In this document: positions 3,790 to 43,032 of the stretch, piece by piece
Position numbering within the stretch: the stretch's first letter is position 1
How the letters are laid out: every line of letters begins with the position of its first letter
NCBI GenBank assembly: GCA_022574295.1
Contig: JACZSJ010000001.1
Coordinates: forward strand, 786 to 64,785
Direction: 5' to 3'
Origin: Pseudomonadota bacterium
GTDB lineage: Bacteria; Pseudomonadota; Gammaproteobacteria; Eutrophobiales; Eutrophobiaceae
Length of the DNA: 64,000 nucleotides
Notes under the pieces: model-generated
The model's input: the letters and a program-made list of their open reading frames with translations, nothing else
What the model was told of the DNA's origin: nothing
The model's database searches: none
Program-made: the position numbers and the translations under genes

Positions 3790-3866
<77 letters not shown>

Positions 3867-4088: not shown

Positions 4089-4233
4089 AAGTTTCTGAAG
4101 GGCTCCATTAGGGGCCTTTTTTACAGGCTTTCCAGAATTATTTGTCGGATGGTTTAGAAACTGGTGGTTTTAAGATGAGCGGCTATACTGCGCGTAGATT
4201 ATTTTGAATTTTAGAAGTGGGCCTTGTGCCCAT

Positions 4234-4430
4234 TTTTTATGTACAGGATGTACGGTATGCCGCGGGTGCATGGATGCACAGGAGCGGCGATGTACATAGG
4301 AGAACCTCTAATTAAGTCAGAGGTTCCATAGAAGTACGGTATGCCGCGGCCGCATGAACATCTTACAGGAAGTATTATTGTCACGAGAGGACGGGAGTTC
4401 GTAGCGACTGCACATGAGTGGCGGTTTGTA
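4234..4430 (+). repeat. Intergenic repeat element, copy A (upstream of rimP)
   Basis: Shares two modules with 17894-18062: TTTTTATGTACAGGATGTACGG, and GTATGCCGCGG.TGCATG.A...CAGGAAGTATTA.TGTC.CGAGAGGAC.GGAGT.CGTAGCGACTGCA...GAG.GGCGG. It has its own internal hairpin (GAACCTCT..AGAGGTTC) and begins right after a short terminator-like hairpin (4219-4240). Confidence 0.7.
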
Positions 4431-17848: not shown

Positions 17849-17874
17849 GCTTTATTTGTATCGTATCTTTGGAA

Positions 17875-17901
17875 AGGCCTGCTCTGCAGGCCTTTTTTTA
17901 T
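17875..17901 (+). terminator. Rho-independent terminator after rplS
   Basis: AGGCCTGCTCTGCAGGCCT hairpin followed by TTTTTTTA. Confidence 0.75.
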
Positions 17902-18062
17902 GTACAGGATGTACGGTCGGAAAAGGCTCCTGCAATTCCGACATTTCCGCCATCCATGGCGGTCGTATGCCGCGGCTGCATGGACGACATACAGGAAGTA
18001 TTAGTGTCGCGAGAGGACAGGAGTCCGTAGCGACTGCAGAGGAGCGGCAATGTAATAGAATA
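17894..18062 (+). repeat. Intergenic repeat element, copy B (between rplS and the convergent aldo-keto reductase gene)
   Basis: Shares the same two modules as copy A. Its central module is a different perfect palindrome, CCGCCATCCATGGCGG. Confidence 0.7.
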
Positions 18063-18099: not shown

Positions 18100-19092
18100 T
18101 TATCTCGTACTACAGTTATGTTCCGTTACTTCTTCGTTACGATCGGTGGCTGGTGGAGGGGTAGGTGAAAGCGCTGAAATCTCTGCCCGTAGTTCTTCCG
18201 TCATGCTGATTTCTACGGATTTAAGCGAGTCTTCAAGCTGTATCAAATTACGTGCTCCGATGATGGGTGCAGTGACTGCAGGGTGGCTACTGACCCAGGC
18301 GACTGCCAGTGACGCTGCGCTGTAACCACGCTCTTTGGCAAAATCTGAAAATCTCTCCGCAACTTGAAAATCTGTTTTCGCTCCGTAGCGAACCTGGTAA
18401 GTTTTGTTCTCCATCAAACGTCCGCTTTCAGGTCGCTTATTAATACCATATTTCCCTGTAAGTAAACCGCCACCCAACGGGCTGTATGGCATAACCGCCA
18501 GACCTTCAGCAGCGGCCATGGGCAAAATTTCAACTTCTGCCTGACGCTTAACAAGATTATACATTGGCTGTATACAGCGAAATTTCGGCAAGTCATTTTT
18601 AGCAGAGATACCCAACGCCTTCATGACTTGCCATGCTGCGAAATTACTTGCGGCTGGATACCTTATTTTACCTTGTTGTACCAATGTATCGAGGGCACCG
18701 AGAGTGTCTGCCAAATCTGCGTATTCATCGAATTTATGAATATAAAATACATCAATATAGTCTGTTTTAAGACGCTTTAGACTTTCTTCGACTGCAGAAA
18801 GTACGTGTTGCCGTGTGGCCCCTCGAGCATTGATATCTTCACTCATTGGATAATAGGCTTTACTGGTAATAATAATTTCATTTCTGCATGAAGAAATCAG
18901 TTTGCCAAGTATTTCTTCAGCTTTGCCTTTCGAATAGACATTGGCGCAATCGAAGAAATTGATCCCGGCATCACGGCAGTGATTGAACATTTGTTTAGAC
19001 ATCTGCTCATCTGCGTCGCCACCAAAGGACATAGTCCCGAAGCATAATTGCGATACGCGTTCGCCTGTGTTGCCGAGTAATTTATATTCCAT
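18100..19092 (-). CDS. Aldo/keto reductase (Tas/YajO-like NADP-dependent oxidoreductase)
   Basis: N-terminal MEYKLLGNTGERVSQLCFGTM and typical AKR length. Start taken at the internal Met. Confidence 0.75.
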   Translation of the reverse strand: MEYKLLGNTGERVSQLCFGTMSFGGDADEQMSKQMFNHCRDAGINFFDCANVYSKGKAEEILGKLISSCRNEIIITSKAYYPMSEDINARGATRQHVLSAVEESLKRLKTDYIDVFYIHKFDEYADLADTLGALDTLVQQGKIRYPAASNFAAWQVMKALGISAKNDLPKFRCIQPMYNLVKRQAEVEILPMAAAEGLAVMPYSPLGGGLLTGKYGINKRPESGRLMENKTYQVRYGAKTDFQVAERFSDFAKERGYSAASLAVAWVSSHPAVTAPIIGARNLIQLEDSLKSVEISMTEELRAEISALSPTPPPATDRNEEVTEHNCSTR

Positions 19093-19421
19093 GACATAAT
19101 TCCTTATATCCACTTTGGGTCGTTTGTTGCTCCTAGTTGCATATATCTGAACGTCCGTATATGGACTCCTTCTCAACAGGGCAACGCACATTTTAATCTT
19201 ATAGCAAAAAGATGGAGTGTTGAATATGACTTACAGAACTCGAATAAAATAGTCAGCTGAACACGACTGCATGGATGCAGGACGACTTCAAGGATGGAGG
19301 AGGTAGAGAATGTCTGGAACACATTCTCGAGGCAGAACGAATCAGGAGACAGAGTCGAGAAAGATGAGATGTGGGCCAGTTATTCTTATCCCTTCAGAGG
19401 AAGAGTGCGGTATCATTGTTT

Positions 19422-19947: not shown

Positions 19948-20823
19948 ATGGATCATATTGATCGTTTTCTAGATGTACTCTGGATGGAACGAGGTGTTAG
20001 CGATAATACCCTGATGGCCTACCGAAGTGACCTGCAAAAATATGCCCTCTGGCTGGATAAAAACGACTGCGAGATGACAGCAGCACAGGAAGGTCATGTA
20101 AGAAGCTATTTGTCTAGCATGAAAGGAAGATCGGCAAGAACGATGGCGCGGCATCTTTCAAGTCTAAGGAGTTTGTATGGTTATTTGGTGCGCGAGGGGA
20201 TAATGAAACATGACCCTGGTGCTCGGGTGGAGGCGCCAAGATTAGGCAGACAGTTACCAAAATTCCTGACAGAAGCCGAAGTAGAGGCATTGCTCAATGC
20301 GCCAGATACAGACAATTCACTTGGTTTGCGAGATAGAGCAATGTTGGAAGTTCTTTATGCAACCGGCCTGCGTGTATCAGAGTTAGTCGGACTTCAATCT
20401 GGACAAGTTAATCTACGACAGGGGGTTGTCCGTGTTTTGGGAAAAGGCAATAAGGAAAGGCTCGTGCCCCTGGGTGAAGAATCAATCGAATGGTTGACTC
20501 GTTATCAAGACAGCGCAAGGAAGGAACTGTTAGGGAAAAATATCAGCGATGCATTATTTCCAACAAGACGTGGGTCGGCCATGTCACGACAGGCATTTTG
20601 GTATTTGATCAAGCGTTATGCTGTTGTCGCAGGCATTAATAAAACGATCTCCCCACACATATTAAGGCATGCCTTTGCGACACACTTGTTAAATCATGGT
20701 GCTGATCTGAGAGTTGTGCAGATGCTTTTGGGTCATAGTGATATTTCGACCACACAGATATACACACATATTGCCCAGGAACGTCTTAAAAACCTGCATG
20801 CAGAGCACCATCCGAGAGGTTGA
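19948..20823 (+). CDS. xerD: Tyrosine recombinase XerD (chromosome dimer resolution)
   Basis: The N-terminus aligns with XerD (FLDVLWMERGVSDNTL). The catalytic region has R..HxLRHAFAT..LLGHSDISTTQIYTH. Start taken at the internal Met to match XerD length. Conserved xerD-dsbC neighbourhood. Confidence 0.85.
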   Translation: MDHIDRFLDVLWMERGVSDNTLMAYRSDLQKYALWLDKNDCEMTAAQEGHVRSYLSSMKGRSARTMARHLSSLRSLYGYLVREGIMKHDPGARVEAPRLGRQLPKFLTEAEVEALLNAPDTDNSLGLRDRAMLEVLYATGLRVSELVGLQSGQVNLRQGVVRVLGKGNKERLVPLGEESIEWLTRYQDSARKELLGKNISDALFPTRRGSAMSRQAFWYLIKRYAVVAGINKTISPHILRHAFATHLLNHGADLRVVQMLLGHSDISTTQIYTHIAQERLKNLHAEHHPRG

Positions 20824-20935
20824 TTTACGGGAACCTCTATTAATTGTCTTTATCCTGCGATTGCGGCGTTAGCTCCGTACTCACAAAAACGCCGGCCACG
20901 CAAAAATCCTAATGAATAGAAGTCCCCTTAGAAGC

Positions 20936-41376: not shown

Positions 41377-43032
41377 TTATGTACAAGGTTGTACGATGAT
41401 GTTGCCATTACCATGTTCAACGATTTCATCATCATCGATCTTGAAATTACCTAGTTTAACGGTCATATAACGGTCAAAATATTTTTTTAATGATTTTTCA
41501 ATACTCTTGTCATAATCAGGTCTTAGGGTATGAGTACCACCAGTGACTACCTTGACAATTTTGCCGTTTTTGACAATTTCTTCTCCGTTCTTAAAGACAT
41601 ACAGTGGTTTTTCAAACATTTTTTCTTTATTCTTTATATTGTTATACACAGTAATATCTGCAATGGCACCACCGCCCAGGTGGCCTCTGTTTTTTAATCC
41701 TAAACTGCGAGCTGGTGCCGCACGTGTCATGGTCGCGATTTCATAAAGTGTGTATTCGCGGTCAATACTACTTAATATACTTGCAGCAGCAGCACCTTTG
41801 TTGATTGTCGCCAGCATGTCATTTCTGAAACTACGATCCATTAGCAATCGGATTAAATGGGGATAGCTTGTAAATGGTGCACCATTTGGATGATCGGTTG
41901 TCAGGAAAATTCGCCATGGGTCATTGATTAATAAAAAGAGTTCAAGGCCGATTGCCCATTGCAAGGCATTAACAAAATTCTTGTCTCGATATTTAAATGG
42001 GACAACACCACAGCCCGCATCACATTCAATATCCATGATCACCCACTTTTTCGGGTGAGCATGCCAGTGACCTGCATATTGACGCATAGTATCACCTGAT
42101 GCAGTAACGGTTTGTCCAAACAATACCTGACCTACATCGATAGAAATATTCGGATTTGAGTTTACAGCTTCAGCAATTTCCGCAGCCCCTGATGAAAACT
42201 TTCGGTCACCTTCAGTACCATAACTATGAAATTGGACATGGGTTAAATGTAATGGCATACCTTCAACTGCACGTATAGTATCTAATGTTGTGTGCATATT
42301 GCCTGGAACACCGAGATTACAACCATGTAAATGCAGAGGGTGGGGGACACCTAACTCGCGAACTGCACGTGCAAGTGATTTTATGATCTCACGAGGGGAG
42401 ACACCATAATGTTCATTCTGTTCATCCAGATCTAACTTACGTTGATTAAATTTAAAGGCATTGATGCCGCCAGGGTTTACAACTTTAATCGCTATTGCCT
42501 GTGTAGCATTGATTATCCAGCCCACGTAATCACTAATAGCTTCACGATCTTTTTTCGCAGTTAGCATACGCAGGAAAAAGTCATCACTACCCAACATGGC
42601 ATAGGCGCCTTTATCAACCATTGGTGTATCTGCCATTTCCATGTGTGCCTGACGTGCATTTGAAGGTAGCATGGCAGGTTCAAAACAGGCCGTATAACCC
42701 ATTTCCGCATATCGATATCCTGCAGTAAGTGTTGATGGTGCAGCATGGCCACACCCTGAACGTGTCAGTTTTGTTTTACTTACAAGGTCTGCCCGATGAT
42801 CTTCGGGCAACATCATACGTGCAATATTTACCTTGCCACCACCAATATGAGTGTGGATATCAATTGCACCAGCCATAATTATTTTGCCATTAAGATCATA
42901 TGTCTTATCAATCTTTATTGAAGAGGCAGGTTTTCTCGTGATGTAGCCATCCTGTAGATAAATATCTCTCTTTTCACCATTAATACCATGCACAGGATCG
43001 TAGACAGTGCCACCAGATAATTTAATTAACAT
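41377..43032 (-). CDS. fhcA: Formylmethanofuran dehydrogenase subunit A homolog (amidohydrolase; FhcA)
   Basis: 551-aa FwdA-like amidohydrolase with a metal-binding HxH motif (DIHTHIGG). Confidence 0.85.
   Translation of the reverse strand: MLIKLSGGTVYDPVHGINGEKRDIYLQDGYITRKPASSIKIDKTYDLNGKIIMAGAIDIHTHIGGGKVNIARMMLPEDHRADLVSKTKLTRSGCGHAAPSTLTAGYRYAEMGYTACFEPAMLPSNARQAHMEMADTPMVDKGAYAMLGSDDFFLRMLTAKKDREAISDYVGWIINATQAIAIKVVNPGGINAFKFNQRKLDLDEQNEHYGVSPREIIKSLARAVRELGVPHPLHLHGCNLGVPGNMHTTLDTIRAVEGMPLHLTHVQFHSYGTEGDRKFSSGAAEIAEAVNSNPNISIDVGQVLFGQTVTASGDTMRQYAGHWHAHPKKWVIMDIECDAGCGVVPFKYRDKNFVNALQWAIGLELFLLINDPWRIFLTTDHPNGAPFTSYPHLIRLLMDRSFRNDMLATINKGAAAASILSSIDREYTLYEIATMTRAAPARSLGLKNRGHLGGGAIADITVYNNIKNKEKMFEKPLYVFKNGEEIVKNGKIVKVVTGGTHTLRPDYDKSIEKSLKKYFDRYMTVKLGNFKIDDDEIVEHGNGNIIVQPCT

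Follow-up and report, generated by a model that had tools for sequence, protein, structure and literature searches.

Bacterial genomes often contain small structured repeats of the REP, BIME or BOX kind, and few of these are understood. The REP/BIME elements of Enterobacteria and Pseudomonas, which are mobilised by the IS200-like HUH transposase RAYT, are short imperfect palindromes that are dispersed in extragenic DNA at the 3' ends of genes; they form mosaics in which both orientations occur, expand in tandem to an extent that varies between strains, and have no terminal inverted repeats or target duplications. In Streptococcus pneumoniae, the BOX elements (boxA-boxB(n)-boxC) are structured repeats of modular build that lie between genes and vary in how many internal modules they have. 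The SDRs, reportedly very small dispersed repeats of cyanobacteria, and the Rickettsia palindromic elements (RPEs) are tiny hairpins that insert without duplication, nest in one another and occur in frame in coding genes. Class C group II introns and IS200/IS605 insert in an orientation-specific manner 3' of a hairpin, a terminator or a short target, without target duplication and with ends that are defined by hairpins, and the sponge RNAs of the Csr/Rsm system (CsrB, CsrC, RsmX/Y/Z) consist of repeated short hairpins with (A)NGGA in their loops.

The elements described here share these likenesses. They lie in a window of 64,000 nt, the whole stretch of DNA that was analysed, whose source is the MAG of an uncultured 'Pseudomonadota bacterium' with C1 and sulfur genes. 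Two copies, A and B, are probably members of a large and uncatalogued family of small modular repeated DNA elements, most similar to REP/BIME, BOX and the cyanobacterial SDRs, that would spread at the DNA level. The basic unit, as derived from related sequences, is exactly 51 nt long (ATGTACAGGATGTACGGTATG-GCCGC-GG-GYGCA-NGGA-UGCRC-ARGA-GCGGC-G).

Each of the described systems nevertheless differs from this unit. In contrast to REP/BIME, the unit starts with ATGTAC...GTACGGTATG and not with GTAG (GT[A/G]G), which is found only inside some nested units; it contains two unlike hairpins and stands mostly in direct orientation, the regular alternation being absent; it starts strictly at the end of a terminator T-tract; and it keeps a 21-nt module in hosts that range from 36 to 65% GC, REPs being species-specific. 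BOX is unrelated in sequence, has Gram-positive hosts and is neither targeted to terminators nor self-nesting, and the SDRs and RPEs have other sequences and other hosts and show neither terminator targeting nor GGA loops. The likeness to class C group II introns and IS200/IS605 concerns the targeting logic only, the units being 51 nt long, non-coding and without intron or IS ends. The Csr/Rsm sponges are single-copy genes with GacA/UvrY-dependent promoters and terminators of their own, while the units are promoterless, dispersed and present in both orientations. The initial annotation also considered a miniature mobile element, and in the form of a classical MITE this does not hold: the ends of the unit (ATGTAC... 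and ...GCGGCG) are not inverted repeats of each other, and there is no target-site duplication either in the comparison of ISCR2-like genes with ISVsa3 or at the nested inserts described below. Since the defining features of REPs and MITEs are absent, we do not file the element in either family.

The 51-nt unit and its copies in the window

The conserved 5' module AUGUACAGGAUGUACGGUAUG of the unit forms hairpin 1 (GUAC-AGGAU-GUAC), and 3' of it lies the two-tier hairpin 2, whose stems covary freely while the apical loop stays A(U/G)GGAUG. The structure statistics rest on 59 distinct units among the matches listed, picked without regard to pairing. The sequence of hairpin 1 is fixed by the search pattern, unlike that of hairpin 2, where pairing reaches 90%, compared to 14-48% with slid partners, and double-compensated cells number 118, compared to 37 in shuffles, with none of 500 shuffles equally high. 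Covariation across copies, a check proposed in the initial annotation, is thus strong and compensatory in hairpin 2. For hairpin 1, a compensated variant, GUGC/GCAC, was found in one phage copy. Being sharply defined at 51 nt and strongly covarying, the unit is approachable by experiment.

In the window, copy A lies between tRNA-Met (3790-3866) and rimP-nusA-infB, and copy B lies 3' of rplS, facing a convergent aldo-keto reductase gene, both as initially annotated (Table 1). The near-identical blocks reported to be common to these two intergenic regions were confirmed, and each element of that observation holds. The first block, TTTTTATGTACAGGATGTACGG (22 nt), has the same letters at 4234-4255 and 17895-17916, and none of 100 shuffles gave two matches. 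The block of about 90 nt is identical at 72 of 87 aligned positions (83%; 4339-4425 against 17965-18049) and has a 28-nt core that is present window-wide at those two places only (chance expectation, 0.00). The segment said to be doubled in copy A, GTACGGTATGCCGCGG, is indeed found at 4250-4265 and 4334-4349. Folding also bore out the claim that the copies start in a T-tract: each begins at the last T of an upstream hairpin and U-tract. A consensus terminator scanner missed both of these terminators, and folding was used instead.

Other parts of the initial description need to be modified. What had been called a mosaic of blocks is modular but is better put as one unit with nested copies of itself, and its size, given as about 170-190 bp, was measured to be 186 nt for copy A (4239-4424) and 150 nt for copy B (17900-18049). 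The two differing central palindromes are both present but are not at equivalent positions, the one in A being an insert in the hairpin-1 loop of the second unit and CCGCCATCCATGGCGG in B being part of an inverted unit. The GTCGC...GCGAC stem is intact in copy B but has one mismatch in copy A.

Table 1. Features of the window and composition of the arrays behind rplS
Feature	Position	Strand	Details
Intrinsic terminator, tRNA-Met/rimP spacer	4217-4238	+	Fold -8.8 kcal/mol, z = -2.6
Copy A unit 1, canonical 51-nt unit	4239-4289	+	Covariance model R1, 78.6 bits, E = 2e-18
Copy A unit 2, decayed composite with two inserts	4290-4424	+	R1 aligns 4290-4354; 37-nt insert in hairpin-1 loop
Palindrome GAACCTCT-N9-AGAGGTTC	4302-4326	+	Replaces the AGGAU loop in hairpin 1 of copy A unit 2
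Intrinsic terminator of rplS	17872-17899	+	Fold -17 kcal/mol, z = -4.1
Copy B, 51-nt unit interrupted by two nested units	17900-18049	+	Unit pieces 17900-17917, 17967-17984, 18035-18049
Inverted 49-nt unit between hairpins 1 and 2 of copy B	17918-17966	-	Contains CCGCCATCCATGGCGG and GCTCCTGCA loop
Forward 50-nt nested unit in hairpin-2 apical loop of copy B	17985-18034	+	Directly after GGA; R1 aligns 17987-18035
Locus C, related GGA-loop hairpin cluster	19264-19359	+	CGACUGCA-UGGA-UGCAG..GGUAGAG..
Array behind rplS, window and L146			Composite alone
Array behind rplS, L140			Two minimal units and composite
Array behind rplS, L141, L143 and L144			Minimal unit, different module, composite
Array behind rplS, L145			At least 4 units

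In the first unit of copy A, hairpin 1 is GUAC-AGGAU-GUAC, hairpin 2 is two-tiered and has AUGGAU as its apical loop, and the minimum free energy fold of the unit (-20.3 kcal/mol) is the proposed structure. The second unit contains a degenerate nested unit (4359-4408) inside hairpin 2; it has 83% identity to hairpin 2 of copy B together with the unit nested there, and several of its stem pairs are broken relative to B. The fold z-score of copy A, -1.8, is unremarkable.

The 150 nt of copy B add up as 51 + 49 + 50, and the removal of both inserts leaves exactly the 51-nt unit of strains L140 and L145. The whole copy folds into modular hairpins (-58.2 kcal/mol, z = -2.8). For the inverted 49-nt unit, whose inner hairpin is matched by R1 at 17948-17961 on the minus strand, an 'empty' site is provided by the minimal units of L140, which join GTACGGT straight to ATGCCGCGG. 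The forward 50-nt unit (CGAC-AUAC-AGGAA-GUAU...GUCGC-GAGA-GGAC-AGGA-GUCC-GUA-GCGAC) aligns to R1 end to end as a diverged unit, and a unit in L145 in which the inverted insert is already present reads CTGCATGGA followed by TGCAG, without the forward insert. Relatives of 49-50 nt thus nest in either orientation in the unpaired regions of the unit, namely, the hairpin-2 loop and the linker between hairpins 1 and 2, and the variants of the rplS array supply filled and empty forms of both nested insertion sites.

Distribution and placement behind terminators

The pattern ATGTACAGGAWGTACGGTMNG matches at least 120 loci in JGI metagenomes, and among the matches listed, the host contigs of unit-bearing loci range from 36 to 65% GC. 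Full units were found on four IMG/VR viral contigs, and the nested-unit core, a narrow query, gave three MAG loci when searched in genome contigs, with full units in two gammaproteobacterial MAGs. Long loci hold extra sites, at an estimated density of about 1 per 40 kb among the matches listed, and the R1 search of the 64-kb window gave 2-3 sites, two of them full loci. A further weak match at 41379 (8.8 bits) overlaps the 3' end of a coding ORF and was rejected as chance. The presence of only two full loci in the window is what a local duplication, that is, two chance paralogous spacers in this genome only, would produce, but the at least 120 loci in unrelated metagenome contigs, viral contigs and MAGs, together with the strong covariation, refute this explanation, to which we attach practically no credence. 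The initial annotation named the existence of just two copies among the grounds that would refute it, which is clearly not the case, and its suggestion of a REP/ERIC-like repetitive extragenic element holds in that the element is both repetitive and modular, as seen from the metagenome loci, the tandem arrays and the gain and loss of units between strains.

The element was also called unfamiliar, and it has no match in Rfam 15 or in the plasmid and phage collections and no exact-sequence match in the literature searched. An Rfam scan of the window at gathering thresholds found only tRNA-Met, lenient scans (E up to 10) of both regions turned up nothing but noise, with a 15-bit match to the rimP leader upstream of the element among it, and in 20 array-rich loci Rfam found only tRNAs, no family covering the arrays. 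Two tandem units used as a blastn query matched none of 72,556 plasmids and none of 50,697 phage records, and exact-sequence and keyword searches of the literature returned no description of the element. A paper on Alcanivorax sRNAs was considered as a possible description and set aside, as it deals with ordinary Csr-like sRNAs. The arrays break metagenome assemblies, as in L139 and L142, where array B is interrupted by N-gaps. Since all six frames are open in most units, these could be mis-annotated as sRNAs or small ORFs.

The placement of the arrays is narrow. Among the matches listed, TT stands directly before 108 of 126 array starts; a strict test for a hairpin plus T-run was passed at 67 of the 126, and at many more the terminator is plain by eye. 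Of the nearest upstream ORFs, 43 are co-oriented with the unit and 6 are not, with a median of 69 nt from the stop codon to the unit, and the downstream ORF is co-oriented in 31 and convergent in 25, again among the matches listed. From this geometry the unit is an 'after-the-terminator' element and not a 5'-UTR element. Landing at the end of a terminator T-tract is exact and unusual, and through it the enzyme or process responsible for the placement could be assayed directly.

The same placement bears on a small-RNA gene family, which the initial annotation had offered as one option. That A, B and C are independent paralogous sRNA genes with promoters of their own would agree with their intergenic positions, with the stable modular fold of copy B and with the hairpin 2 followed by T-runs in the L002 array, which resembles a terminator. 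However, the surroundings of A and B contain no promoter-like site, counts there being no higher than in shuffles, and the copies start where the upstream transcript ends. The sites occur about once per 20-40 kb, in both orientations and also inside an ORF, the number of units varies between near-identical strains, the at least 120 loci are in unrelated hosts and include in-frame insertion in an ORF, and the fold z-scores of A (-1.8) and C (-0.9) are weak. Independent sRNA genes are therefore very unlikely, and the option is not supported. The copy number, the precise gain and loss of unit-sized segments, the nesting in two orientations, the presence in phages and in an ORF and the decayed copies argue instead for a dispersed repeat.

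The insertion in an ORF concerns about 12 loci among the matches listed, in which a unit occupies, in frame, a single site in the gene of an ISCR2-like transposase (IS91 family). The ORF of L122 continues through the unit (..EPLDF-MYRMYGMPRAQGCAGAA-IARLAALVP..), and ISVsa3, which is 65% identical over the aligned region, lacks exactly the 17 amino acids (51 nt) found in the ISCR2-like transposases. At the DNA level, the junctions are TTT-unit-ATTGC in the ISCR2-like genes and TTC-ATTGC in ISVsa3, with no duplication beyond an ambiguous AT. The transposases that carry the unit have diverged to about 70% identity, while the hairpin was kept via compensatory changes (GCCGC/GCGGC to GTTGC/GCGAC), which points to selection on the structure or to gene conversion. 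We counted this long-term maintenance of the hairpin in the ISCR2-like genes against the reading as a mobile element.

Variation of the arrays between strains

Among the matches listed, the arrays are mostly head to tail with a 51-nt period, and the number of units differs between strains that are otherwise 99% identical. Behind rplS, where RplS and the terminator are identical in all sister strains, the arrays range from 1 to at least 4 units (Table 1). At rimP, a segment of 104 nt with GAGCGGC direct repeats at its borders is missing from the sister strains L135-L137; it includes the 4217-4238 terminator and the 5' part of copy A unit 1. Inverted hairpin-2 modules also occur within arrays, and an inverted pair is present in L062. 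No fresh insertions were seen in additional contigs of the window organism (up to seven at any point, 19-64 kb). Since the arrays vary at rplS and rimP with no new units elsewhere, rearrangement inside arrays appears to be far more frequent than insertion at new sites. We infer mobility from the distribution and from the filled and empty pairs inside arrays, no new insertion having been seen, and near-identical strains supply such pairs naturally.

The landing sites are unpaired tracts in or beside a hairpin, with no target duplication at any junction examined. Two of them, the terminator T-tract and, on the opposite strand, the linker between hairpins 1 and 2, are sites 3' of a hairpin, and the third is the hairpin-2 apical loop itself. 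This suggests hairpin-guided insertion into single-stranded DNA. In such a scheme, spread at the DNA level would be guided by hairpins in single-stranded DNA and be brought about in trans by an HUH-type enzyme (IS200/IS605, RAYT or IS91-like) or another hairpin-recognising enzyme; terminators may be favoured because they offer a hairpin and an unpaired tract in a harmless place, and recombination or slippage inside arrays, and not new insertion, would account for most of the present variation. In tblastn searches with approximate sequences of IS200 TnpA and the E. coli RAYT as queries, nothing was found at E<0.8 in the window and about 0.9 Mb of loci. When 1,590 ORFs were compared all against all, the only recurrent neighbours were housekeeping families and the ISCR2-like host gene, and the ORFs bracketed by two units are ordinary genes or toxin-antitoxin pairs, no mobilising enzyme being found there. 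One locus, L107, looks like an array of cassettes in which a repeat and, after it, a unit come behind every toxin-antitoxin gene.

The precise gain and loss of units without duplication could also be expected if the units were not transposed elements but sites of site-specific recombination, either integron attC-like or the target of a tyrosine or serine recombinase. Folded hairpin sites just 3' of ORFs and the cassette-like array of L107 are consistent with this. Against it, the unit consensus lacks the attC core pair (RYYYAAC...GTTRRRY), the units follow ordinary housekeeping terminators (rplS and tRNA-Met), the 51-nt tandem arrays have no intervening genes, and no integrase recurs beside the units, and we consider recombination sites highly improbable.

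Resemblance to CsrA ligands

A dispersed, DNA-level repeat may still act through RNA. The units could be RNA modules that bind the global regulator CsrA/RsmA, with arrays on read-through or 3'-extended transcripts serving for its titration or for its recruitment to neighbouring messages, and this would be compatible with a mobile origin. Their loops match the best-known ligand of CsrA. Each unit would offer two high-affinity GGA sites in hairpin loops, 26 nt apart and enough for one CsrA dimer; the spacing is reportedly within reach of a bridging dimer. Hairpin 1, GUAC-AGGAU-GUAC, contains CAGGAUG, which is said to be the repeat of CsrB, and it differs by one missing base from RUACARGGAUGU, reportedly the CsrA consensus selected in vitro. 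The loops are constant while the stems covary, and GGA stands on the strand that is sense for the upstream gene. Over the 110 nt downstream of hairpin 1, i.e., outside the search pattern, GGA was found in 37% of the predicted apical loops among the matches listed, compared to 11% after shuffling and 3% in random genomic 110-mers, while TCC was found in 8%. The array of L002 has 20 AGGA compared to 4 TCCT, and loci A, B and C have 7 GGA per 116-190 nt, compared to about 1.7-2.7 expected from the window. Furthermore, CsrA was found by CLIP-seq to bind AUGGA in apical loops (PMC5207318), a motif that is matched by the hairpin-2 loop AUGGAUG in 29 of the 59 units; another 12 have AGGGAUG.

Several observations speak against this reading. 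The units begin exactly at the expected end of the transcript, with no promoter-like site before them, and they are much too dense for Csr/Rsm sRNAs, which typically have 1-5 genes. The inverted unit of copy B (17918-17966) shows UCC and not GGA in its same-strand loops, copy A unit 2 is decaying, and the 3' internal loop of hairpin 2 is AGGA in just 20 of the 59 units. Among the mispairs in the stems of these units, G.U (13) and A.C (10) are about equally common, so nothing in the stems points to selection on the RNA strand alone. The Csr/Rsm models of Rfam had no match, and the CsrB, CsrC and RsmX/Y/Z covariance models did not match the regions even at E up to 10. No csrA was found in the window or the loci, which carries no weight, as csrA is a single gene per genome. 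Taken together, units that act as CsrA-binding RNA modules are rather unlikely. The stronger version, in which the 51-nt unit would be a horizontally spreading, self-nesting CsrA-decoy cassette with no cargo other than two optimal CsrA-binding hairpins, is a more doubtful proposal still, and a genuine decoy function would, on the analysis made here, have a low probability in the range of these two.

On the preferred reading as a dispersed repeat, the CsrA-type GGA loops on the sense strand may have a secondary effect on read-through transcripts. The orientation bias of the apical loops (GGA, 109; TCC, 24) was, like the hairpin maintenance, counted against a mobile element. That hosts so unlike each other share the 5' module and the GGA loops fits a conserved ligand of a host factor at least as well as a transposase site, and selection on an RNA function, if true, would explain why both are kept in hosts of 36-65% GC. 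If the units do act as decoys, these would be seeded behind terminators, in phage genomes and in frame within the mRNA of an IS transposase, and their effect would be either a genome-wide link between terminator read-through and the CsrA regulon or a collective buffering of CsrA. CsrA binding would then amount to a dispersed and evolvable post-transcriptional layer in uncultured marine Gammaproteobacteria and their phages.

The initial annotation counted two copies in the window, and these are real, but it overlooked a third related locus, C, in the spacer that separates ogt from the divergently oriented aldo-keto reductase gene. Locus C is a more distant relative of A and B, without the 5' module and without an upstream terminator; it is unchanged between strains, and its fold z-score is just -0.9. 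Its sequence CGACTGCA.GGATGCAGGAGGTAGAG is common to L002, L038, L131 and L141, and CGACUGCA.GGAUGCAGGAGGUAGAG is also found in several foreign loci. Within 116 nt there, GGA occurs 7 times and TCC 0 times.

Units without stop codons and their place in transposase genes

Among the 59 distinct 51-nt units of our alignment (A3), 32 are free of stop codons in all six frames (e.g., window 4239-4289), compared with 1.7% of composition-matched shuffles, a statistic that is not independent because the units are related by descent. This openness fits the tolerated in-frame presence of the units in a transposase open reading frame. One fixed site holds a unit in a lineage of ISCR2-like (IS91-family) transposases, and the unit-carrying copies include both intact and frameshifted genes. 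In the L131 copy, the unit within the gene has gained a nested module.

Positions of the features discussed
Feature	Sequence	Position	Description
ISCR2-like transposase loci with unit	L016, L024, L043, L054, L055, L060, L068, L087, L101, L122, L131
Inverted unit pair	L062	6022-6178	136 nt apart
Region with toxin-antitoxin pairs	L107	700-4250	RelE/Phd-like and ParE/ParD-like
Simple-hairpin variant units	L020, L032, L109, L121
Terminator ahead of array A	window	4217-4238	hairpin plus T-tract
Terminator ahead of array B	window	17872-17899	hairpin plus T-tract
Aldo-keto reductase, longest ORF	window	18100-19191 (- strand)	363 aa
Locus C	window	19264-19359	third cluster of related GGA-loop hairpins; divergent spacer, aldo-keto reductase gene/ogt
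Post-xerD spacer	window	20822-20930	~109 nt
Post-xerD spacer	L148	1611-1632	22 nt

Unit variants and arrangements

In contig L062, two units in inverted orientation form a long palindrome, an arrangement that is REPIN-like. In four contigs, the unit is a variant whose hairpin 2 is plain (GCCGAUUUUGCAGGAGCAAAAUCGG), and 3' of this variant lies a separately conserved tail, GACGC.GC.ATCGCGG.AAAAGACAATTAATAGAG, just 5' of the next gene. The toxin-antitoxin region of contig L107 resembles a cassette array and may be related to chromosomal integron arrays. Behind each gene pair come a ~150-nt segment that is repeated, a small hairpin with a T-run, and then a unit.

Terminators and spacers of the window

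The terminators ahead of arrays A and B were confirmed by folding; the consensus terminator scan missed both, even though they meet its stated rules. Locus C has neither the 5' module of the units nor an upstream terminator, and it is stable across strains; arrays A and B vary. In every sister contig, the adjacent aldo-keto reductase is called as a protein of 330 aa, starting with MEYKLLG at 19092, and because the start is placed there, the spacer to ogt is 278 nt. The spacer following xerD is polymorphic between strains, being far longer in the window than in L148. The region around the xerD stop of the window folds into a hairpin (AGAGGTT..GAACCTCT) that has its stem sequence in common with the palindrome inside copy A, and a pattern search for this shared motif found 3 occurrences against 1.4 expected, which is not above chance.

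Metabolic genes of the host

Genes for SoxYZ, a PQQ-dependent dehydrogenase, and formate dehydrogenase subunits are encoded by the host (window 28-64 kb; L148 and L155-L171), as is an H4MPT-linked C1 module comprising Fae, Mch, Ftr, and formylmethanofuran-dehydrogenase-like subunits (same sequences). This gene set makes an uncultured gammaproteobacterium of the deep sea, methylotrophic or sulfur-oxidising, the probable host.
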